In this document: one piece after another, positions 5,731 through 45,672 of the stretch
Position numbering within the stretch: position 1 is the first letter of the stretch
Layout: every line of letters starts with the position of its first letter
From: Escherichia phage RB69
DNA length: 64,000 nucleotides
Sequence record: NC_004928.1
Direction: 5' to 3' (one strand)
Translations under genes and position numbers: made by a program
Notes under the pieces: model-generated
What the model was told of the DNA's origin: nothing
What the model saw: only the letters and a program-made list of their open reading frames with translations
The model's database searches: none

Positions 5731-5971
5731 TCAAAATATTTTGCCAATTAGGCATACCTTCTGAACATATGCCGGAGAACCGTCTTTATTTTTGAATGAT
5801 GCAAGTTTATCAGTGGCCCAATAACCTTTAGTTCGAGCTTCAGAATCAACTTTCATCCATACTTTGTTGAAGGCATTACCATTAACTTTTGCACCATATT
5901 TTTGTACTTTCGGTTACAGATCCAGCTTCCAGAACTTTTACAGTATCTCGTAAGAAACGTGCTTTAGTCAT
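5731..5971 (-). pseudogene. small ORF interrupted by a 1-nt frameshift at an A5 run (about 79 codons if corrected)
   Basis: Hand translation of minus strand: MTKARFLRDTVKVLEAGSVTESTK then stop; adjacent frame continues ...YGAKVNGNAFNKVWMKVDSEARTKGYWATDKLASFKNKDGSPAYVQKVCLIGKIF*. Confidence 0.45.
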
Positions 5972-6037
5972 TTTGTTTACTCCTCTGCAGCTGATAAGTC
6001 GATAGTATCACATACCAAATACGTTGTAAACAATCTT

Positions 6038-15109: not shown

Positions 15110-15865
15110 ATGGCTAATATAATTCGTTGTAAATTACCGGATGGTGTTCATCGTTTTAAGCCGTTCACTGTGGCGGATTATAGAGACTTTTTACTAGTTA
15201 GAAATGATATCGAACATCGTTCGCCGCAAGAACAAAAAGAAATAATTGCCGATCTGATTGATGATGATTATTTTGGCGAGTACCCTAAAACATGGCAACC
15301 ATTTATATTCCTGCAAGTTTTTGCAGGCTCTATAGGCAAAACAAAAGTTCCCGTTATTTTCACTTGCCCTAAATGCTCTAAAGAAAAAACTGCACCATTT
15401 GAGATATATCAAAAAGAACTAGTCGAACCTGAACTTGATGTTGCTGGTATAAAAATACGTTTTTCTTTCCCTGAAAAGTTTTATGACAATAAAGCATTAA
15501 TGATAAGTGAAAACATAAAAGAAATATATTATAATGATGAATGGTACCCATGGAATGATTTGACTGAAGAGAACCAAATCCAAGTAATAGAAGCAATAGA
15601 CATTGACTCGCTCGAGAAGGTTATTGCTTCTATGAATCCTATTAATTTGACCCTTAGATTAGGTTGTTGTGAACGTCATGTTAAAACATATACTGATATC
15701 TTAGAGGTTTTTAAATTGTTAGTTAACCCTGATGAGATTTTTACATTTTATCAGATAAACCATTCACTAGTAAAGAGTCAATACACATTGGATTCTATTA
15801 TGCAAATGATTCCTGTTGAACGTGGTATTGCTTTAACATTAGTAGAAAAGGACCATAAAAAATGA
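15110..15865 (+). CDS. 51: baseplate hub assembly protein gp51
   Basis: 251 aa; divergent from gp26 across a late-promoter region. Confidence 0.88.
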
Positions 15866-17515: not shown

Positions 17516-19284
17516 AACCTGAAGAAATGAAATCCATGCGTAGAAATAAGGTCATTGCCGATAATAAACCACAAAAAGTAGCTGCAACAGCAGCTACCGA
17601 TTCATTAGAAGCATTGAATAACATTTCATCAAAACTAGACGATGTCCAAGCTGCGTCTGAACTCACATCACAAAGTGTAGAAGATAAAGGCAATGGAATT
17701 ATTGAATCAATTGGAGACTTAAAGAATTCGACAGATAATACTGCTGAAGGCACAGAGCTTATCGCAGAAGTTATTGAAAAACAAACTGAAGTCACTAAAA
17801 GTATAAACGAAGTTTCTAGTGCAATAAGCTCTAAGTTAGACCGATTAGCTACATTATTAGAGCAAAAATTACAAACATCTACCGCTATTCAAAATACAGG
17901 AGGCACCTCTCTTGAAGTAATTGAGAATGCAATACCTGTTAAAGTGGTTGAGAATGAAACTTCTGATGAGTTGTTTAAAGCATTCCCTACACCTGAAAAG
18001 ATCGATAATAAGCCAGACGAAGATTTCTTCCCAACGCCGGTTCAAGAAAGTGCTAATTCTACTTCCGATTCTAAAGGCGGGATTAGCTTTAAATTGAGCG
18101 ATAAAATTGCAATGCTCACCAAAACAGTTCAAACCGGGTTTAATAAATCAATATCAATTTCAGACAGAATTGCTGGAATGCTTTTCAAATACACTATAAC
18201 GGCTGCTATTGAAGCAGCAAAAATGGCCGCACTTATTCTTGGTATTGTTATCGGTATTGATTTATTGATAGTCCATTTCAAATATTGGACAGACAAGTTC
18301 ACTTCTGCCTGGGATTTATTTGATGAAAACTTTACTAAATTCTCCGATGAAGCTAAAGAGTGGGGTAAATTCTTAAGTGATATATTCACTTCTATTGACT
18401 CGATAAAACAATTGTGGGAAGCTGGAGACTGGGGTGGTTTAACCGTTGCTATTGTCAAAGGTGTAGGAACAGCATTAATGAACTTAGGTGAACTAATTCA
18501 ATTAGGAATGGCTAAACTCTCCGCATCTATATTGCGTGCTATAGGTTTTGGTGATACCGCGGACGAAATAGAAGGACGTGCTTTAGAAGGATTCCAAGAA
18601 ACTACTGGGAACAAATTAAAGAAAGAAGACCAAGAGAAAGTCGCCAAATATCAAATGAAGCGTGACGACGGGGAATTAGGAACCGTTTCTAAAGGTCTTG
18701 ATATGTTACAACGCGGCAAAACATTCGTTACTAACTGGGTTCGTGGTAATGATAATAAAGAAGAGTTTAGTACAAGCGATGAGCGTGCTGCGGAATCGGC
18801 AAAATTAAAAGAGTTACCTGAAGAGGAACGTAAAGAGGCATATATAAAAGCTAATGAAACTCGGGCAGCCTTAGTTAGATTTGAGGATTATATCGATAAA
18901 ATCGATATGACTAATCCGGAAAATGCTAAAAACGTTGAGAAGTCTTATGCCGATTTAAGTAAACTTATTAAAGACCCTGAACTTAATAAAACTCCTGTTG
19001 TTAAAAAGGAATTAGATGCTAGATTTGAAAAGCTAAATAATAAAATGGCTGAAGCCAAAAAGGCTCAGACAACAGTTAAGCCTGAATCTTCGTCTAAATC
19101 TCCGGAAGCAAAACAAGTTCAGTCAATAGAGAAAGGACGTGCTTCTGAATCTAAACAACAGCAACCGGTAGCGACGATTAGTAATACAAATAATGTCGTC
19201 AAAAAGAATACCGTAGTCCAGAATATGACCCCTGTAACAAGTACAACGGCTCCTGGAATTTTCCATGCCACCGGTGTTAATTAA
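17512..19284 (+). CDS. 29: tail tape measure / baseplate hub protein gp29
   Basis: 590 aa, same length as T4 gp29; central hydrophobic segment. Confidence 0.9.
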   Translation: MKPEEMKSMRRNKVIADNKPQKVAATAATDSLEALNNISSKLDDVQAASELTSQSVEDKGNGIIESIGDLKNSTDNTAEGTELIAEVIEKQTEVTKSINEVSSAISSKLDRLATLLEQKLQTSTAIQNTGGTSLEVIENAIPVKVVENETSDELFKAFPTPEKIDNKPDEDFFPTPVQESANSTSDSKGGISFKLSDKIAMLTKTVQTGFNKSISISDRIAGMLFKYTITAAIEAAKMAALILGIVIGIDLLIVHFKYWTDKFTSAWDLFDENFTKFSDEAKEWGKFLSDIFTSIDSIKQLWEAGDWGGLTVAIVKGVGTALMNLGELIQLGMAKLSASILRAIGFGDTADEIEGRALEGFQETTGNKLKKEDQEKVAKYQMKRDDGELGTVSKGLDMLQRGKTFVTNWVRGNDNKEEFSTSDERAAESAKLKELPEEERKEAYIKANETRAALVRFEDYIDKIDMTNPENAKNVEKSYADLSKLIKDPELNKTPVVKKELDARFEKLNNKMAEAKKAQTTVKPESSSKSPEAKQVQSIEKGRASESKQQQPVATISNTNNVVKKNTVVQNMTPVTSTTAPGIFHATGVN

Positions 19285-19292
19285 GGATTATT

Positions 19293-20402
19293 ATGATTAG
19301 TGTAAAAGAAATAGTAGTAGATGCAAAGGATTTAAATAAAGCAATCCCAGTCTCAGAAAGTGCTGGGCAAAGCACTAAAACCGAAACAACTACTAAAACT
19401 TATGTTGCTCAATTTCCTACAGGAAGAGCAGCCGGAAATGACTCCACAGGAGACTTCCAGGTAACAGACCTTTATAAGAATGGATTATTATTTACCGCGT
19501 ACAATATGTCTGCACGCGATTCAGGATCCCTAAGAAATTTACGTCCGGCATACGCCGGGACTTCATCTAATGGTATCATATCAGATTTAACTGATAATGT
19601 GAAAGATGCAGTGACTAAATTCTCAAATGGATTGCTTCCTGCCGGAGCTAATAAATCTACTATAAATAAAACTCCTGTTGCTAATATACTTTTGCCACGT
19701 TCCAAATCTGACGTTGATACAACTTCACATCGTTTTAATGATATCGGTGATAGCCTTATTACTAAAGGTGGAGGTACTGCTACGGGCGTTTTAAGTAACA
19801 TTGCTTCTACTGCAGTTTTTGGTGCATTAGATTCTATTACTCAAGGGCTTATGGCTGATAATAACGAACAGATTTATACGACTTCTCGTAGTATGTATGG
19901 CGGTGCTGAGAACCGTACTAAAGTCTTTACATGGGATTTAACTCCACGTTCAACTGAAGACCTTATGGCTATTATAAACATTTACCAGTATTTTAACTAT
20001 TTCTCATATGGTGAGACCGGTAAATCACAATACGCCCAAGAGATTAAAAGTTATTTAGACGAATGGTACCGTTCAACGTTTATTGAGCCTATGACACCAG
20101 ACGATGCTGTAAAAAATAAGACATTGTTTGAAAAGATTACTGCGTCATTAACAAACGTATTAGTTGTAAGCAACCCTACGATTTGGATGGTTAAAAACTT
20201 TGGACACACATCTAAATTTGACGGGTTAACTGATGTATTTGGCCCATGTCAAATTCAAAGCGTACGTTTTGATAAAACTCCAAATGGACAATTTAATGGT
20301 CTTGCTGTTGCTCCTAACTTACCGTCAACATTTACGTTAGAGATAACAATGCGAGAAATTATTACATTAAACCGTTCTTCACTTTATGCGGGGACTTTCT
20401 AA
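19293..20402 (+). CDS. 48: baseplate tail tube cap gp48
   Basis: 369 aa; T4 order. Confidence 0.88.
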   Translation: MISVKEIVVDAKDLNKAIPVSESAGQSTKTETTTKTYVAQFPTGRAAGNDSTGDFQVTDLYKNGLLFTAYNMSARDSGSLRNLRPAYAGTSSNGIISDLTDNVKDAVTKFSNGLLPAGANKSTINKTPVANILLPRSKSDVDTTSHRFNDIGDSLITKGGGTATGVLSNIASTAVFGALDSITQGLMADNNEQIYTTSRSMYGGAENRTKVFTWDLTPRSTEDLMAIINIYQYFNYFSYGETGKSQYAQEIKSYLDEWYRSTFIEPMTPDDAVKNKTLFEKITASLTNVLVVSNPTIWMVKNFGHTSKFDGLTDVFGPCQIQSVRFDKTPNGQFNGLAVAPNLPSTFTLEITMREIITLNRSSLYAGTF

Positions 20403-21749: not shown

Positions 21750-23836
21750 TATCCTTGGACAAATTTAAACGGAACTGATTCTAAATCCATTAAAGATGCT
21801 AACAATTTCAAACCTTTAGGTGCGCTAGTTTTTTCTACAAATGAAGAGAACGATACCGGCTCATCTGATTCGATTTCACCTGTCATAGCAACCACCTCAC
21901 CTGTTTCCATGAGAACATCACCATCATAAATGACAGCTTCATCTAACTGGTCTGAGGACATGACTTCAGCTTGAATAAATTTAAGGTTGGATTCTAAACC
22001 TGCACCAGTGTCAGATGACGCATCTGTAATTTTATTTATCTGCAAGAGAATGCCTCTAGGCAAAATAATTTCTTGCTCATTAGGGTGATTACTCAACTGT
22101 CCTGGATAAATCACGTTAACTTTATGAGCACCATCAATAGCCCATCCAACGTTAACACGGATTTGTTCTGGTGCATGCATAGCTGTTCTTACTTGACTAG
22201 GAGAAATAGTAACACCTTCGTCATTATTGTCAATGTTAAGCTCTTTGCGAACGTTCTTCAGGAGCAAGTCCAAGGGCAACGTTCTCTTTAAACCCACCGA
22301 AAATAATAGGAGCTTGTGAAGTGGAAACATAGTTTCTGAAGTAGAATACCTTATTTTTAACCATTGCTTCGTAAATAGGCATTCTGATAGACTGAGCTCT
22401 ATATAACGTTTGTCCTTCAGGTAACGGTCTCCATTTAAAAACGCCGAATCAAGACCATCAATAGCGCGTTTAACTTCATCTTCATCTGCAACATCGTAAA
22501 AATCTGGTTTATAACGACCTAACAACATATTATTGATATCGGTATACGCAGAAGAGGCATATTCACGAATAGCTCGTTTTTCAGCAACAGAGTATTGTTT
22601 AGGGTCCCGATTCATTGTTATATTAAAGGTGCCTCTAGCCGATTCTCGTGCATAAGTATACATCACATTAGACAAGAACGCTGATTTACGTTGTTTCCAA
22701 GTTTTTTCAGATACTTCAGCTAAAACGTCGTCGGCCAGTTGGAAATTATCACGTCTAAAATCTTCAAACCATTCGTCTTTAATAGAGTCTGCAATCTCAT
22801 TTGCAGCTTCAACAAAAGCAGCTAATGCTTTAACAGATGTTGTTTTTTCAGTTTTAATTTTCTTAGCAAACTTTTCTAAAGTTGGCTTAATAACACCACC
22901 ATAAGAAACTTCATCAGCAAATTTAAAGGATTCATCAATACGATTATAAATCTTATTTTCGATATCAGCAACTAAAGTGCCTTTTGCTGTGGACGATGCT
23001 TGGGCTAGTACTATTTCATATGCTTCAGGAAGTAATTCGGCTGTAGCCGGGCCACTAACTTCTTTAGCAGAATTTTCGTATTTCTGGAATAACTCACCTT
23101 CTTGGCGGTCCGCTTCTAAAGATTGACTTGCTGCAATAGCACGACGAGAAATTTTAGTACGAGCAATAACAGGCTTATCTTTACGTTTTTCTTCTACAGC
23201 AGCAATAGAACCAGCGATAGCCGTTTCTTTGGTGACCTTTTCGCCAGTCTTTTTACTCACATAAACTTCGCCAACATCAGAATCTACTTTCGTGTACAAC
23301 TCTGTGTTAATGTTAGGGATGCCTTTAATATCTTCAATGTTGGCATTTTTACGAACCATCATCACATAGGTGTGTTTACCTGTGAATTGATACATTGCCG
23401 ACAATACTTTAAAACGACCACCGGTTTTAGTAGAAACTAAACGAGCAAGAAGAGTTTGAAGCTGCTGTCCACGTCCTTTCAATTTCTTGGTAGGGAATCG
23501 GAACAGAACTGCATCCATACGAAGAGCTTTAACCTGTTCATATACTGTATTGAAAATGGTGTTGATTGCATCAATAGGAGCAGGACCAAGGCCATTTTTC
23601 AATTCAGCGAGATTACCCTTTTCAGATAGACTCATAATAACAACATGAGCGTATTTGTCGCCAAGTTTAACTTGTTTTACAGCATCACCTTCGGAAAGGT
23701 AAGAGAATAAGCGAACTACGATGTTTGTATCGATATCACCAATTTTCCAGACTTGTGGAACTTTAGCTTTAGGGTTCAAATTGACGACAGGAAGACTGCC
23801 TTCAGATTCAAACACTTCATTTAATTGTTCAGACAT
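21749..23836 (-). CDS. alt: Alt-like ADP-ribosyltransferase (packaged); ORF open but an internal segment appears frame-shifted
   Basis: 695 aa; T4 Alt position; ART-type helix motif YTDINNMLLGR and EQEIILPRG in ORF frame, but YRA and STS motif region reads in another frame (see findings). Confidence 0.8.
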   Translation of the reverse strand: MSEQLNEVFESEGSLPVVNLNPKAKVPQVWKIGDIDTNIVVRLFSYLSEGDAVKQVKLGDKYAHVVIMSLSEKGNLAELKNGLGPAPIDAINTIFNTVYEQVKALRMDAVLFRFPTKKLKGRGQQLQTLLARLVSTKTGGRFKVLSAMYQFTGKHTYVMMVRKNANIEDIKGIPNINTELYTKVDSDVGEVYVSKKTGEKVTKETAIAGSIAAVEEKRKDKPVIARTKISRRAIAASQSLEADRQEGELFQKYENSAKEVSGPATAELLPEAYEIVLAQASSTAKGTLVADIENKIYNRIDESFKFADEVSYGGVIKPTLEKFAKKIKTEKTTSVKALAAFVEAANEIADSIKDEWFEDFRRDNFQLADDVLAEVSEKTWKQRKSAFLSNVMYTYARESARGTFNITMNRDPKQYSVAEKRAIREYASSAYTDINNMLLGRYKPDFYDVADEDEVKRAIDGLDSAFLNGDRYLKDKRYIELSLSECLFTKQWLKIRYSTSETMFPLHKLLLFSVGLKRTLPLDLLLKNVRKELNIDNNDEGVTISPSQVRTAMHAPEQIRVNVGWAIDGAHKVNVIYPGQLSNHPNEQEIILPRGILLQINKITDASSDTGAGLESNLKFIQAEVMSSDQLDEAVIYDGDVLMETGEVVAMTGEIESDEPVSFSSFVEKTSAPKGLKLLASLMDLESVPFKFVQG

Positions 23837-26706: not shown

Positions 26707-27129
26707 TCAAGTTAGTATTGTATCATCTTTTGTTAGACCACTAGCCATGCTGTGCTTCAAAATTTTTCCTTTAGAGGCTTGTAAGGCATCACGAAACCCC
26801 TTGTTTTGGATCGCGGCTTCAAAATATGCATTTGTGTATAATTCTTTCCACGCTTCGGAGTATCTTGAAAATGGAACTCCTAACCAGAAGAGAGTCCCAC
26901 GGTCCTGAGCTCTTGCATAAGACCTTCCTGCTTGCTGTGCAGCCAATCCAGACAACCCAAATATACTATGTTGTTGTTCAACATTTTTCACCTTACATCC
27001 TTGGAGAAATCCTTCAAGACCTCCGAATTGAATACCATCCATAACAAAAGGCCATTGAGCAAAGTTACTTAATGCACATGACGGCCACTTGAAATTACTT
27101 CTAATCTCTAACTCAGGCATCTTTAACAC
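26707..27129 (-). CDS. NADAR / YbiA-like (DUF1768) domain protein
   Basis: 140 aa; SNFAQWPF...DG...EGFLQGCK resembles the YbiA/NADAR N-terminal signature (recalled). Confidence 0.55.
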   Translation of the reverse strand: MLKMPELEIRSNFKWPSCALSNFAQWPFVMDGIQFGGLEGFLQGCKVKNVEQQHSIFGLSGLAAQQAGRSYARAQDRGTLFWLGVPFSRYSEAWKELYTNAYFEAAIQNKGFRDALQASKGKILKHSMASGLTKDDTILT

Positions 27130-30691: not shown

Positions 30692-30942
30692 TATAGTGTT
30701 CCGTATACGCGAGTTGCTTCAACTAAACCGTCACTGCCTAATTTAAGGCTAGTAATCTGGTCACCATCTTTAGGATTAACGATTATGAGAAAAGAACGTG
30801 GAGATTCTTGAATAACTCGTAATGTTGCATCTTGGAAACGTTCAGACACCTTATTGATGAGTGCTTGAGCAAATTCTTGTACTTTAATCTGAAATTCGTG
30901 TACTGTAATTGGGGTTTCACTTAGCCTTTCGATTTCCCTCAT
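30691..30942 (-). CDS. hypothetical protein
   Basis: 83 aa ORF abutting cd. Confidence 0.5.
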   Translation of the reverse strand: MREIERLSETPITVHEFQIKVQEFAQALINKVSERFQDATLRVIQESPRSFLIIVNPKDGDQITSLKLGSDGLVEATRVYGTL

Positions 30943-31669: not shown

Positions 31670-32755
<1,086 letters not shown>

Positions 32756-36139: not shown

Positions 36140-37312
36140 TTAGAAATATTTTTTGTATGAATTGATTACATTTTGGTCTACATCATTATCAATTTGTGCG
36201 ACAAGATAAGAACTGATTTCAACTTCCTGAGGAGCTGCTTGAACTAAATCAGAGTTCAGATATTCACGAATCCAAGGATACGGATGCTTGGTCGGAGCAT
36301 CAGTAATTGGACATGGCAAACCGCACTGTTTCATACGAGACACAGTCAAGTAATCAACAAAAGCACACATACTCTGTGTATTGATACCTGGACATGTACC
36401 GTCTTTAAAGAGGTGTGCAGCCCATTCCTTGTACTTGACTATTAACTTCCATAAAAATGTCAACTGCTTCTTGTTCACATTCTTTAGCAATTTGAACCCA
36501 CTCATCGCCATCAGTACCAGATTGAAGTTGACGGATAATGTACTGAGTACCCTGAGATGGAGTTGTTCGTCACGAGCAATGAACTTCATAATCTTTGCAT
36601 TACCTTCCATAATTTCCATATTTTTATGGAAGTTGAAAGTACATGCAAATGATACGTAAAAACGAATAGCTTCTAAGGCGTTGATAACATGCAAACAGAG
36701 ATAAAGAGACTTCATTAAATCGCGCTTGGCGTTAAACATTATTTCTTCGTACATCTCAATATCATTCTGCTGGCATGAGCCTATTGAACACTCATAAACT
36801 TCCTTAGCATTTTCCCAATTACGAGTCTTGACTAGAACATCGTCATAATATTTACCTATTGATTCAGCTCGTTTCATGATTGCTTCGTCTAATACAATCT
36901 CATCAAATACTTTGGATGGATCGGTATAAAGATTTCGCATAATATGAGTATATGAACGAGAGTGAATAGTTTCACTGAATGTCCATGTTGCAACCCACGT
37001 ATCTAATGAAGGGTCGGAAATCAGTGCCATAAGTACCGCAGATGGGGCCCTGCCTTGGATAGAATCCAATAATGATTGATACTTAAGATTGTTTGTACAG
37101 ATGTCCTGTTGGAACTGAGGAAGCTTATTGAACTGTGCAGAGTCCAACATCAAGTTTACCTCTTCGGGGCGCCAGAAAAATGACAGGATTTCTATAAGTT
37201 CTTCAAAAACTTTATGACGCTGAATATCATACCGTGCAAGACCAAGACCAGAACCAAAGAACATCGGTTCGTTCAAAACATCGACTTGTTGTGTATTAAA
37301 AACTGTACTCAT
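36140..37312 (-). CDS. nrdB: ribonucleotide reductase small subunit NrdB; intronless, with internal out-of-frame segment
   Basis: 390 aa ORF; N- and C-terminal parts match class Ia NrdB; about 50 codons in the middle are read out of the conserved frame (see findings). Confidence 0.9.
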   Translation of the reverse strand: MSTVFNTQQVDVLNEPMFFGSGLGLARYDIQRHKVFEELIEILSFFWRPEEVNLMLDSAQFNKLPQFQQDICTNNLKYQSLLDSIQGRAPSAVLMALISDPSLDTWVATWTFSETIHSRSYTHIMRNLYTDPSKVFDEIVLDEAIMKRAESIGKYYDDVLVKTRNWENAKEVYECSIGSCQQNDIEMYEEIMFNAKRDLMKSLYLCLHVINALEAIRFYVSFACTFNFHKNMEIMEGNAKIMKFIARDEQLHLRVLSTLSVNFNLVLMAMSGFKLLKNVNKKQLTFLWKLIVKYKEWAAHLFKDGTCPGINTQSMCAFVDYLTVSRMKQCGLPCPITDAPTKHPYPWIREYLNSDLVQAAPQEVEISSYLVAQIDNDVDQNVINSYKKYF

Positions 37313-37367
37313 TATATTTTCTCACTTAGTTATTAACTCATCCATGAGTAAATTATAATCAAAAGTC

Positions 37368-39623
37368 TTAAAGCTTACAAGCAGAGCAATCTTCAGCTTT
37401 AGGTGTTTCTAATTCATAGTCATCTGTACCTGACCCATCACGAGTGTTATGATAGTAGAGATTTTTTCCGCCAAAGTACCAGAAGTAAAGCAGATCGTCA
37501 AGCATTACCGACATTGGCACTTTACCTTTCTCAAATACAGCAGGGTCATAATAAGTATTAGCAGAAGCAGATTGGCACACCCATTTCAACATGATAGCAA
37601 CTTGGGTCAAATAAGGTTTATTACCTTTCTTAGCAAGTTTCCACGCGTAGTCGTAAAGACTCATGTTATGTTCGATATTAGGAACAACCTGTCGGAAGTT
37701 GCCTTCTTTAGATTCTTTAATACTTACAGGTCCACGAGGTGGTTCTATACCATTTGTGCTATTTGAGACTTGACTGCTTGATTCACATGGCATGAGAGCA
37801 CTAAGTGTACTGTTACGAATTCCATGTTCTTTTGAGTTCAGCTCGAAGTTCTTCCAGTCACAGACGTAGTTCGGGGCTGCGATTTGGTCAATCTTTTTAT
37901 TGTACCAGTCGATAGGTAATTCGCCTCTAGACCATTTAGTGTCTGAATAATACTCACAAGGTCCTTTTTCTTTGGCGAGTTTGATTGAAGCTTTGATAAG
38001 GCCATATTGCAATCTCTCGAACAATTCATGAGTCAAATAGTTAGCGTCTTCATATGAAGCAAAGTTAGAAGCTAACCATGCAGCATAGTTCGTCACACCG
38101 ACACCGAGATTTCGACGCTTTTTAGCTTTTAAAGCTTCTGGAACCGGATAATCTTGATAGTCTAACAGGTTATCAAGTGCACGTACTTGTACTTCAGCAA
38201 GTTCATTAATTTTATCTTGGTCTTGCCAATCAAATTTATCTAATACAAAAGCAGATAACGTGCATAAACCAATTTCAGCATCAGGACCATTCACATCATT
38301 AGTTGGAATAGCGATTTCACAACATAAGTTACTCTGACGAATTGGAGCTTTTTCACGAATAAACGGAGTGTAGTTATTCGTGTTATCAACAAACTGTGGA
38401 TAAATTCGAGCAGTACCAGAACGTTCAGTCATGAACAATTCAAAGAGTTCTAGTGCTTTGATTCTTTTCTTTCTGATTGTTGGGTCTTTTTCAGCTTTCT
38501 CATAAAGCTCACGGAATTTATCTTGATCTTCAAAGAATGAGTAATATAGTTCGCCTGACATTTCGTGAGGGCTAAATAAAGTAATATAATCATTTTTACC
38601 AAGGCGTTCCATCATGAGGTCATTAATCTGAATTCCGTAGTCCATATGTCGAATACGGTTTTCATCCACGCCTTTGTTATTTTTCAGAACTAATAGGTTC
38701 TCTACTTCTAAGTGCCACATTGGATAATACGCTGTAGCAGCACCACCACGAATACCACCTTGAGAACAAGATTTTACTGCAGTTTGGAAATGTTTCCAGA
38801 ATGGAATAACACCCGTATGTCGAACTTCACCCATACCGATCTTAGAACCTTCTGCACGAAGCATACCAACGTTGATACCGATACCAGCTCGTTTAGAAAT
38901 ATATTCAATAATTGATGCTGAAGTTTTGTTAATAGATTTTAACGAATCACCGGCTTCAATAACTACACAACTAGAGAACTGGCGAGTTGGAGTACGAGCA
39001 CCTGCCATAATTGGGGTTGGCAATGAAACTTGATGAGTAGAAACGGCATCATAAAAACGAATAATATGTTTCAAACGGTCATGAGTTTCGTCTTGGTGTA
39101 AGGCCATGCCAATAGCCATGATAGCAAACTGGGGAGTTTCATAAATCTTACCAGTTGTTTTATCTTTAACCAGGTATTTTTCTTTAAGCTGCATAGCACC
39201 AGCATAAGTCAGATCAAAATCTCGCTCATGTTTAATCCGAGAATCAAGATAAATGATTTCTTCTGCAGAATATCTAGACAACAACTCAGGATCATATTTG
39301 CCTTCATTAACACAATAAGAAATATGGTCGATAAAAGCAGGCGGTTCAAACTGCCCATATACATCTTTACGAAGTGCAAACATTAGCCCTTTGGCGGCGA
39401 CATACTGATAATCAGGTTCTTCGACAGAAATCGAGTTAGCTGCAACTTTAATACAAATCTTCTGGATATCTTTGGTGCTCATCCCGTCGACAAGATGGGT
39501 CTTAATTTCTTCGTACAATTCATATGGGTCGATTTGTGTTCCTTCACATTGCCAAGTTAAGACTTGAATAATTTTCTGTGCATCAAAATTTTGGGATACA
39601 CCACTGCTCTTAGTTACTTGCAT
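37368..39623 (-). CDS. nrdA: ribonucleotide reductase large subunit NrdA
   Basis: 751 aa; active-site NLCCE and C-terminal CSACKL cysteines. Confidence 0.95.
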   Translation of the reverse strand: MQVTKSSGVSQNFDAQKIIQVLTWQCEGTQIDPYELYEEIKTHLVDGMSTKDIQKICIKVAANSISVEEPDYQYVAAKGLMFALRKDVYGQFEPPAFIDHISYCVNEGKYDPELLSRYSAEEIIYLDSRIKHERDFDLTYAGAMQLKEKYLVKDKTTGKIYETPQFAIMAIGMALHQDETHDRLKHIIRFYDAVSTHQVSLPTPIMAGARTPTRQFSSCVVIEAGDSLKSINKTSASIIEYISKRAGIGINVGMLRAEGSKIGMGEVRHTGVIPFWKHFQTAVKSCSQGGIRGGAATAYYPMWHLEVENLLVLKNNKGVDENRIRHMDYGIQINDLMMERLGKNDYITLFSPHEMSGELYYSFFEDQDKFRELYEKAEKDPTIRKKRIKALELFELFMTERSGTARIYPQFVDNTNNYTPFIREKAPIRQSNLCCEIAIPTNDVNGPDAEIGLCTLSAFVLDKFDWQDQDKINELAEVQVRALDNLLDYQDYPVPEALKAKKRRNLGVGVTNYAAWLASNFASYEDANYLTHELFERLQYGLIKASIKLAKEKGPCEYYSDTKWSRGELPIDWYNKKIDQIAAPNYVCDWKNFELNSKEHGIRNSTLSALMPCESSSQVSNSTNGIEPPRGPVSIKESKEGNFRQVVPNIEHNMSLYDYAWKLAKKGNKPYLTQVAIMLKWVCQSASANTYYDPAVFEKGKVPMSVMLDDLLYFWYFGGKNLYYHNTRDGSGTDDYELETPKAEDCSACKL

Positions 39624-39710
39624 ATATTCCTCAGTATAGGTTGATAGACATTACTCCAAACGGGATAGTATTTATCCCGTTAATTTATTATACACTTTTA
39701 AACTGAAGCG

Positions 39711-39965
39711 TTAATTATTCTTAGCAATAATTTCTTTGTATTCTTTAGGTGTCAAGACTGTGATATCGAAATAAACCAATGGTTCTTTTTCCATACCGTA
39801 ACCACCACAAAATTCACGATATTCATAAATTCGTTCATGTGAATAACAAATGAATCGTTCACCTTTAACTGTGATTTCACTATTCGGTGAAGGGATATCT
39901 AGTTCGGTAGGATTTTTCATTTCAAAAATTGTGGTGCCATATGAATTAATAAAACGTAAAATCAT
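39711..39965 (-). CDS. hypothetical protein
   Basis: 84 aa ORF between nrdA and td. Confidence 0.55.
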   Translation of the reverse strand: MILRFINSYGTTIFEMKNPTELDIPSPNSEITVKGERFICYSHERIYEYREFCGGYGMEKEPLVYFDITVLTPKEYKEIIAKNN

Positions 39966-40826
39966 TTATACCGCCATTTTAGCTTTGATAGTTGGATGAG
40001 ATTCGTAATTTTTAAGAACGAAATCAGAATGTGTCATCGTTCCAGTAACCCAGTCCATTTGGATTTTTGTAGGCCAATTCTCAAAATTACTAGGCCAATT
40101 AATTTCAAGAGAACACAACTCTTTAGGTTCACGACGAAGAACTTCTTTGCATTGTTCTACATGATTGCTGTAGATATGCGTGTTGCCGCCTGAGAACACT
40201 AAATCACCCGGGATAAGGTTACACATCTTCGCTACAATATGCGTCAAGGCAGCGTACGAGGCGATGTTGAACGGCAGGCCCAAGAAAACATCTACACTGC
40301 GTTGATACCATTGTAAATCAAGATGTCCATTACGCACATTAAATTGATAGAACATATGACAAGGAGGAAGAGCCATTTGGTCAATTTCGGCAGGGTTCCA
40401 TGCAGAAACTATTTGTCGACGATCATTAGGAAGAGCTTTAATACGGTCGATAGTTTTGACCAATTGGTCTACACCACCAAAATCACGCCATTGCTTACCA
40501 TAAATAGGACCAAGTTCGCCGCTATGATATCCAAGGTCTTTTGCCTGATTTTCATAGTTGTCGTCCCAAATAGTTTTACCTTCAATTAGACTACCATGAG
40601 TACGAATACGCAAATCATTAACATTGGTAGAACCAGACATGAACCACAGTAGTTCGGCAATACAAGCTTTCCATGCAAGCTTCTTGGTTGTTACTGCAGG
40701 GAATCCTTTAGTCAGGTCCCATCGCAATTTAGTTCCGAACAGGGCAATAGTGCCTGTGCCTGTACGGTCGTCTGTTTCGTAGCCATTTTCTAGGATATCA
40801 TTAATCAGGTATTGGTATTGTTTCAT
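39966..40826 (-). CDS. td: thymidylate synthase (intronless)
   Basis: 286 aa continuous ORF; catalytic PPCH motif. Confidence 0.95.
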   Translation of the reverse strand: MKQYQYLINDILENGYETDDRTGTGTIALFGTKLRWDLTKGFPAVTTKKLAWKACIAELLWFMSGSTNVNDLRIRTHGSLIEGKTIWDDNYENQAKDLGYHSGELGPIYGKQWRDFGGVDQLVKTIDRIKALPNDRRQIVSAWNPAEIDQMALPPCHMFYQFNVRNGHLDLQWYQRSVDVFLGLPFNIASYAALTHIVAKMCNLIPGDLVFSGGNTHIYSNHVEQCKEVLRREPKELCSLEINWPSNFENWPTKIQMDWVTGTMTHSDFVLKNYESHPTIKAKMAV

Positions 40827-42489: not shown

Positions 42490-42496
42490 TAATTTA

Positions 42497-44799: not shown

Positions 44800-45672
44800 T
44801 TACAAGTATGAATAAATCTTGCCTTTAGGTTGTGGTTGATATGAGTTATAATACTCTATAATGGTTGAAGCAATATTATCAGGGATATAATCAAAATCAA
44901 TGAGAACCAAATTTTCTTGGTACCGTTTATATTCTTCTGCACTTAATAATACTTCAGCTTGAGAACGATCATTGGCAAGTGCTTCAATGATCGTTGTTTT
45001 CATGCTTGGAGTTCGTTCGCCTTCGACTCGAGTAAACCAGAAATCACCACGAACTCGAACAGACGCAACACCATCTTTACGGTCGCCTTTAAGAATTTTA
45101 GTCATGCAATCAATTTCGGCAGAACCATTCTTAATTTTAACCCATTTTTTCTGCGGTGGCGACCACTGTTTAACGTTAGGGTATTTGTGTAATTGTGTAA
45201 AGTCACCATCTGATGCAACAATACACACCTTATGACCAGCTAATGACAAATATTTAGTTAATACGCCGATATGGTCATCCGCTTCGTATTTGTCAATATC
45301 CATTACAACGTATGGCATATATTTCTTAATCTCATCAACGACTTGATGAAGTGCAGTAAAATATCCTTCCCAATCCCACTTTGAAGCTTCACGATCAGTT
45401 TTACGATTTTTCTTGTAGTAGTAAGCAAAGTCGCGTCGCCAATACCCAGAAGTAGCGTTATCCATGCACAATACAAATTTTGTATAACCTTGCTTACGGA
45501 ACATCACTACGTTTTTACGAATTGAATTCAAGACTACATGACGAACCATCGGAACGGTAATTTTATCACCATCTTCAAAGTTGTTTAATGCAGCTGCCAA
45601 TGCAATGTTACTAAAGTCTGCAAGCGCAATACCTTCTTTGTAATCTTCATCCAACATCATTTCTAAATCCAT
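44800..45672 (-). CDS. rnh: RNase H (5'-3' exonuclease), 3' end disrupted by apparent 1-nt deletion
   Basis: 290 aa ORF; conserved C-terminus LVKSGLSKLTSVINEF* continues in the +2 frame to 44756. Confidence 0.88.
   Translation of the reverse strand: MDLEMMLDEDYKEGIALADFSNIALAAALNNFEDGDKITVPMVRHVVLNSIRKNVVMFRKQGYTKFVLCMDNATSGYWRRDFAYYYKKNRKTDREASKWDWEGYFTALHQVVDEIKKYMPYVVMDIDKYEADDHIGVLTKYLSLAGHKVCIVASDGDFTQLHKYPNVKQWSPPQKKWVKIKNGSAEIDCMTKILKGDRKDGVASVRVRGDFWFTRVEGERTPSMKTTIIEALANDRSQAEVLLSAEEYKRYQENLVLIDFDYIPDNIASTIIEYYNSYQPQPKGKIYSYL

Follow-up and report, generated by a model that had tools for sequence, protein, structure and literature searches.

Paired frameshifts in nrdB of the deposited phage RB69 genome very probably reflect errors in the record

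Introduction

In the deposited genome of Escherichia phage RB69, the gene for the beta subunit of class Ia ribonucleotide reductase (nrdB) forms one continuous open reading frame (ORF), inside which a part of the conserved protein core is encoded in a different frame. The question raised by this locus is whether the two changes of frame belong to the phage or to its record. In class Ia NrdB proteins, six metal ligands occur in the order Asp / Glu-x-x-His / Glu / Glu-x-x-His, together with the radical Tyr. No publication calling the RB69 record wrong was found in the literature on RB69 nrdB, NC_004928, the sequencing runs used here, and RB69 with I-TevI, nor was a description of these runs found there.

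Materials and Methods

The analysed stretch of 64,000 nucleotides (hereafter, the window) belongs to the RB69 record AY303349 / NC_004928 (167,560 bp, released in 2003), and all positions refer to it. Positions 1-48000 of the window were aligned with the genomes of three Mosigvirus phages (PhAPEC2, NHEP11, and phiC120), and an indel was called private when it was confined to one genome and the other three agreed. The mutual identity of the four Mosigvirus genomes, RB69 included, was 96.2-96.7%, so that each of them could be used as a control for the others. The re-sequencing evidence was taken from de novo assemblies (Logan) of public runs, the base counts being read from contigs and not from raw reads. 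Contigs were taken as RB69, from independent stocks, on the basis of 99.8-100% identity over tens of kb. Three of the eight contigs with the canonical NrdB were checked base by base in DNA (SRR16634598, SRR29299747, and SRR16629523).

Results

Reading Frames of the Deposited Gene

The genes around nrdB are arranged in the order td, nrdA, nrdB, denA, and rnlA, which is the same in other Mosigvirus phages. The neighbouring ORFs of 751 aa and 136 aa were identified by exact-sequence look-up as exactly RB69 NrdA and DenA. The deposited NrdB was a singleton at 90% clustering of about 15 billion proteins, with the GenBank record as its sole contig. The coordinates of the gene, of its anomalies, and of further suspect sites are listed in Table 1.

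Table 1. Deposited nrdB, its anomalies, and further suspect sites of the RB69 record, in window coordinates.
Feature	Position	Strand	Basis
nrdB as deposited, 390 aa	36140..37312	minus	ORF list; exact match to NP_861928.1 / AAP76137.1 (RB69 NrdB)
41 codons out of frame (RVLSTL...LIVKY); true reading KGTQYIIRQLQSGTDGDEWVQIAKECEQEAVDIFMEVNSQE	36431..36553	minus	translations; comparison with re-sequenced RB69
Missing base, sense AAG > AG, plus strand TT > T	36552..36553	minus	alignments with relatives; base present in Logan contigs L010/L016, L017, and L018
Extra base 36433 and wrong base 36431, sense GAG > GTAC	36431..36433	minus	alignments with relatives; re-sequenced contigs
Wrong base, sense GTA > GTT	36444..36444	minus	re-sequenced contigs; stop-codon map of the corrected gene
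Wrong base, sense TTT > TGT; conserved Phe of IFTNNLKYQ changed to Cys	37098..37098	minus	relatives; re-sequenced RB69; Phe in E. coli R2
Second small nrdB indel pair, two A and one T missing, GAAAAATCCTTGTCA > GAAATCCTGTCA	37184..37191	minus	relatives; re-sequenced contigs
nrdA pair, +1 then -1, 23 nt apart	37830..37855	minus	private indel scan; re-sequenced contigs
gp22 cluster, N-terminus, +1/-1, 9 nt apart	3257/3266		private indel scan
ORF188c cluster, -1/+1, 151 nt apart, about 10 substitutions around	5761/5912, region 5761-5991		private indel scan
alt cluster, +1/-1, 169 nt apart, plus substitutions at 22315 and 22411	22253/22422	minus	private indel scan
cd cluster, three single-base insertions within 34 nt	30162/30167/30195	minus	private indel scan
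nrdB clusters	36433/36552 and 37185	minus	private indel scan
nrdA cluster	37830/37853	minus	private indel scan
Changes in nrdB in contig SRR16634598_28	36431 G>C, 36433 deleted, 36444 A>T, +T 36553, 37098 C>A, +A 37185, +TT 37191		
Changes outside nrdB in contig SRR16634598_28	37833 deleted, +C 37855, 42490 deleted, +A 44805, 56604 deleted		

Translations and DNA alignments confirmed for the deposited sequence what the preliminary description had reported, namely, a continuous ORF with the conserved NrdB core in a different frame. After ARDEQLHL, the ORF frame gives RVLSTLSVNFNLVLMAMSGFKLLKNVNKKQLTFLWKLIVKY, and the frames rejoin at KEWAAHLF, as had been described; the alternative frame over the same DNA gives GTQYIIRQLQSGTDGDEWVQIAKECEQEAVDIFMEVNSQ. 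The latter peptide is that of the relatives' NrdB across the entire shifted stretch, except for Q/R at one variable position, and this match is not due to chance. The shift itself is as described, but its length is 41 codons (gene nt 760-882) instead of the approximately 45 given at first.

The two changes, a -1 and a +1 lying 120 nt apart, were placed by alignment with O157 typing phage 3 (O157tp3), TuIa, and T4. In the sense context, the deletion reads CTCAAGGGT > CTCAGGGT. A deletion in a G-run near 36550 had been proposed; the deletion is there, but the lost base is the A of a Lys codon (AAG) and not a part of the G-run. The insertion postulated near 36430 corresponds to the extra base at 36433, and together with the adjoining substitution it reads CAAG-AGAAGG > CAAGTACAAGG. 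In the 'phages' BLAST collection, from which the RB69 record is absent, the best nrdB DNA matches were relatives with 97.3% identity, and the best matches to the window were relatives with 97-98.5% identity. A 261-nt nrdB stretch was matched by 264 relatives, none of which (0/264) showed at least 99% identity; the single record counted at that level in the collection does not span the frameshift stretch.

Comparison with E. coli R2 (1piy_A) using HMMER gave 355 bits for the deposited NrdB, with the shifted stretch gapped and almost without identities, versus 425 bits for the corrected NrdB, which aligned end to end and cleanly over the helix after the iron ligands. The other-frame peptide, earlier assigned to this helix, does align to it (E. 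coli ...QEKDW); the helix, conserved after the second Glu-x-x-His, is missing from the deposited 390-aa protein and present in re-sequenced RB69. The segments LLDSIQGR, FSETIHSRSYTHI, ALEAIRFYVSF, and ARDEQLHL, which correspond to the ligand motifs of E. coli R2, are retained by the deposited as well as the corrected NrdB in the alignment to 1piy_A, and E. coli also shares the C-terminal QEVEISSYLVAQIDNDVD. At 100% coverage, a hand-repaired NrdB was 98-99% identical to its counterparts in PHB12 and the O157 typing phages; the NrdB proteins closest to it have no interruption and are 391-392 aa long. The closest protein to the hand-repaired NrdB, P0029 from an ENA metagenome, was set aside because it belongs to a relative of ~97% identity and not to RB69. 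Among the class Ia beta subunits (NrdB / R2, PF00268) known from T4-like phages and from E. coli, the product of the corrected RB69 gene is a typical one, whereas the deposited version has 41 unrelated residues after the second Glu/His motif, has lost the residue of codon 42, and carries Cys in place of Phe. The real RB69 nrdB encodes a canonical 391-aa class Ia NrdB.

Re-Sequenced RB69

Exact RB69 gp34 (1277 aa), gp37 (1103 aa), Hoc, gp35, and gp30 were each found on 8-9 contigs, Logan assemblies included, whereas exact-sequence look-up traced the deposited forms of NrdB, NrdA, and Alt to the GenBank record and to no Logan contig. The 54-kb contig SRR16634598_28 was 99.945% identical to window positions 35796-59627, with 13 differing columns. 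All 13 differences fall at suspect sites, where the relatives' state is restored, and there are no others; the 23.8 kb compared contain three substitutions, all within nrdB. The contigs from SRR29299747 and SRR16629523 showed identical nrdB and nrdA corrections. Wherever nrdB was corrected, re-sequenced RB69 has the same base as O157tp3, TuIa, and two metagenome contigs of ~97% identity. RB69-specific substitutions, e.g., CAT at 36557, were retained in the re-sequenced contigs, so these contigs represent RB69 and not a relative.

The corrected nrdB encodes 391 aa, and this exact protein (P0243) was found on eight contigs, all of them from Logan. None of the three re-sequenced DNAs (0/3) had the deposited nrdB indels, and the deposited NrdB protein was on 0/8 Logan contigs; between the deposited and the re-sequenced NrdB, 43 alignment columns differ. 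A different base count at the two sites, which the preliminary description had named as evidence that would speak against it, is what the independent assemblies show: the count is canonical at both sites. Since these are assemblies of the same phage, the feature belongs to the deposited record and not to the phage.

In at least one run, an assembled contig (L011, Logan SRR29299745_56) contained, at ~39175-40660, a divergent T4-like td region split by a 245-aa ORF of GIY-YIG / I-TevI type and was RB69-identical apart from the td region. This segment suggests that introns were homing, or that T4 and RB69 recombined, in the sample from which the run was made. Its T4-like td sequence with an I-TevI intron indicates that the runs stem from RB69 experiments and not from a plain reference stock. 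The T4/RB69 recombinant segments leave nrdB unaffected, and nrdB there is RB69-like at all positions except the corrected ones.

Further Anomalies in nrdB and nrdA

The shifted frame had been regarded as stop-free by luck. It does lack a stop, but not by pure luck: the wrong base at 36444 is synonymous in the true frame and abolishes a TAA in the shifted frame, which keeps the deposited ORF open. The true sequence GAA GTA AAT, in frame after a one-base deletion, becomes AAG TAA, the sole stop of the shifted frame. According to the stop-codon map, only 3.1% of the 40-codon windows in that nrdB frame are without a stop. The small indel pair at the 5' part of the gene (gene nt 124-131, codon 42) turns EKSLS into EILS with the loss of one codon. 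In the deposited 751-aa NrdA (NP_861929.1), seven residues read KNFELNS, in place of EELRAEL in re-sequenced RB69 and the relatives. The wrong base calls over window positions 36431-37855 number about 10 and comprise missing bases, extra bases, and three substitutions.

Private Indels across the Record

Over the 48 kb aligned, 32 private indels were counted in RB69 and 4, 7, and 9 in the other three genomes; those with lengths that are not a multiple of three numbered 25 in RB69 and 3, 6, and 8 in the others. The several-fold excess of private frameshifting indels in the RB69 record over equally distant relatives points to the record and not to nrdB. The RB69 private indels form compensating clusters in gp22, ORF188c, alt, cd, nrdB, and nrdA, and every cluster that could be checked disappears in re-sequenced contigs. 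The gp22 and ORF188c clusters were corrected identically in SRR16629523, SRR16629520, and SRR29299748, and the errors in alt and cd and at 30936, where the record has one more extra base, were absent from the SRR16629527 contig (alt being corrected in SRR16629527_3). The sites at 42490, 44805, and 56604 were corrected in every highly matching contig spanning them, with two to four contigs per site.

The deposited Alt (NP_861900.1; ADP-ribosyltransferase) has ~56 codons out of frame and forms a singleton cluster; 51 alignment columns differ from the re-sequenced Alt across a 62-residue stretch. The deposited dCMP deaminase (cd) has a shifted end with an in-frame stop (…ADILKPSWY followed by the stop), the re-sequenced reading being …ADILKQAGIEVIQYSRNNLRSLNW…. 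At the 3' end of rnh (minus strand), the missing A at 44805 cuts the deposited RNase H to 290 aa, versus 305 aa, ending in …YSYFVKSGLSKLTSVINEF, in contigs from four runs. As some of the clusters truncate proteins (cd, rnh), there is no sign of selection holding the frames open.

The single extra record bases at 42490 (just downstream of gene 32) and 56604 (just upstream of asiA) are apparently intergenic. The deposited gp51 gene contains a GAT repeat unit too many at 15262-15268 (251 aa versus 250 aa). Small clusters of substitutions between the record and SRR16629527_3 (L019) were observed at 26710-26713, 26967-26970, and 32149-32389; these clusters and the GAT unit of gp51 are either record errors or differences between stocks.

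Discussion

The paired frameshift in nrdB is, with a high degree of confidence, an error in the deposited RB69 sequence (AY303349 / NC_004928) and not a feature of the phage. The indels are present in the record and missing from independent re-sequencing, and many similar private clusters occur in the same record. One missing and one extra base in nrdB, combined with a stop-removing substitution, leave the 390-aa ORF continuous, and since it was continuous, the annotation accepted it. Probably, Sanger reads of low quality were miscalled or wrongly edited by hand, and errors sparing long ORFs would be the least likely to be noticed. The coincidence at 36444 may be a matter of survivorship, gene-breaking sets of errors having been noticed and fixed in finishing and ORF-preserving sets not; a manual choice of an ambiguous base call at this position is also possible.

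The pattern corresponds to that of compensated frameshift errors in early Sanger records, with likewise private +1/-1 indels, tens to ~170 nt apart, in conserved genes. As in such records, about half of the RB69 indels are in short homopolymer runs, wrong bases are found alongside, and the changes are gone on re-sequencing. Nothing essential differs, the unusual element being a third error that removes the only stop of the shifted frame. On paper, intragenic frameshift suppression in the Crick-Brenner +/- double mutants (T4 rII) is built alike, with a stop-free missense stretch between a -1 and a +1; however, independent sequencing lacks the RB69 changes, and nothing points to the existence of such a mutant.

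It is very improbable that the stock of 2003 truly carried the compensated nrdB double frameshift and the stop-removing substitution while other stocks kept the wild type, and the extended version, a laboratory lineage that accumulated compensated frameshifts with further pairs in nrdA and alt, is no more probable. The NrdB of such an allele would be inactive or altered, which the phage would tolerate because the host supplies ribonucleotide reductase; the nrd genes of T4 are not essential on hosts having their own reductase. The only point in its favour from the sequence is that the ORF is open solely through the third change at 36444, which looks non-random given the scarcity of stop-free 40-codon windows (3.1%) and which selection on a genuine double frameshift would also yield; survivorship, too, explains this coincidence. 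A real allele would, moreover, require ~10 mutations in 1.4 kb of nrdB-nrdA plus the clusters in alt, cd, gp22, ORF188c, and rnh, nearly all of them indels, yet the 23.8 kb compared have only the three substitutions of nrdB. The truncating clusters show that the frames were not kept open by selection, and 8/8 contigs from other runs are canonical. It is the accumulation of ~10 mutations in 1.4 kb, with clusters in at least five other genes and almost no substitutions, for which a real allele is rated low.

Less probable still, and barely credible, is that the RB69 allele became resistant to homing endonucleases through the imprecise repair of nicks by MobE or of I-TevIII cuts at the nrdB intron site, the indels being the scars. 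The 5' indel pair coincides with the place in T2 nrdB, nt 122-126 (codon 42), at which MobE nicking was mapped in a study that took RB69 nrdB from this very record and used it in the target-site logo (PMC2790892). This coincidence carries no weight, because re-sequenced RB69 has neither the 5' pair nor the frameshift pair. In addition, the T4 intron in nrdB is inserted at the equivalent of window position 36643, which is 90 nt upstream of the first site of frameshift, the pair lying 90 and 210 nt from it in the T4 alignment, and similar indel clusters are found in genes without a known homing site. A homing scar was rejected since the frameshift pair is away from the intron site and the real phage lacks the 5' pair; the re-sequenced contigs refute it unless the stock of 2003 itself carried these changes.

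Two programmed ribosomal frameshifts (or transcriptional slippage) restoring NrdB from the deposited DNA have a negligible probability and were rejected: the only point that suits them is the conserved peptide in the other frame between two defined points, but the sense sequence of the first site, CAACTCCATCTCAGGGTAC (CAT CTC AGG GTA), lacks a slippery heptamer of the form X XXY YYZ, and the shifted architecture is not conserved, 9/9 aligned nrdB genes being single-frame (O157tp3, TuIa, T4, PhAPEC2, NHEP11, phiC120, L008, L009, and re-sequenced RB69 itself) and 0/264 relatives reaching 99% identity to the stretch.

The nrdB frameshift brings no new biology. The practical value of attributing it to the record is that several RefSeq proteins of the model phage RB69 need correcting: in the 64-kb window, NrdB, NrdA, Alt, Cd, RNase H, gp22, and ORF188c are wrong over 3 to 62 residues. 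Errors of the record create singleton protein clusters and can mislead alignments that include RB69, such as homing-site logos, and cloning from the deposited RB69 sequence would be misled in the same way. Scoring private non-triplet indels against equally distant relatives, followed by a check in assemblies of public runs, offers a quick error flag for other early records.

Among the relatives, phiC120 (L007, NC_055718.1) has a private single-base insertion at ~19475, at a shortened gp29 annotation (17955-19499, then a gap), which suggests that the gp29 of this record likewise contains a frameshift error or mutation.
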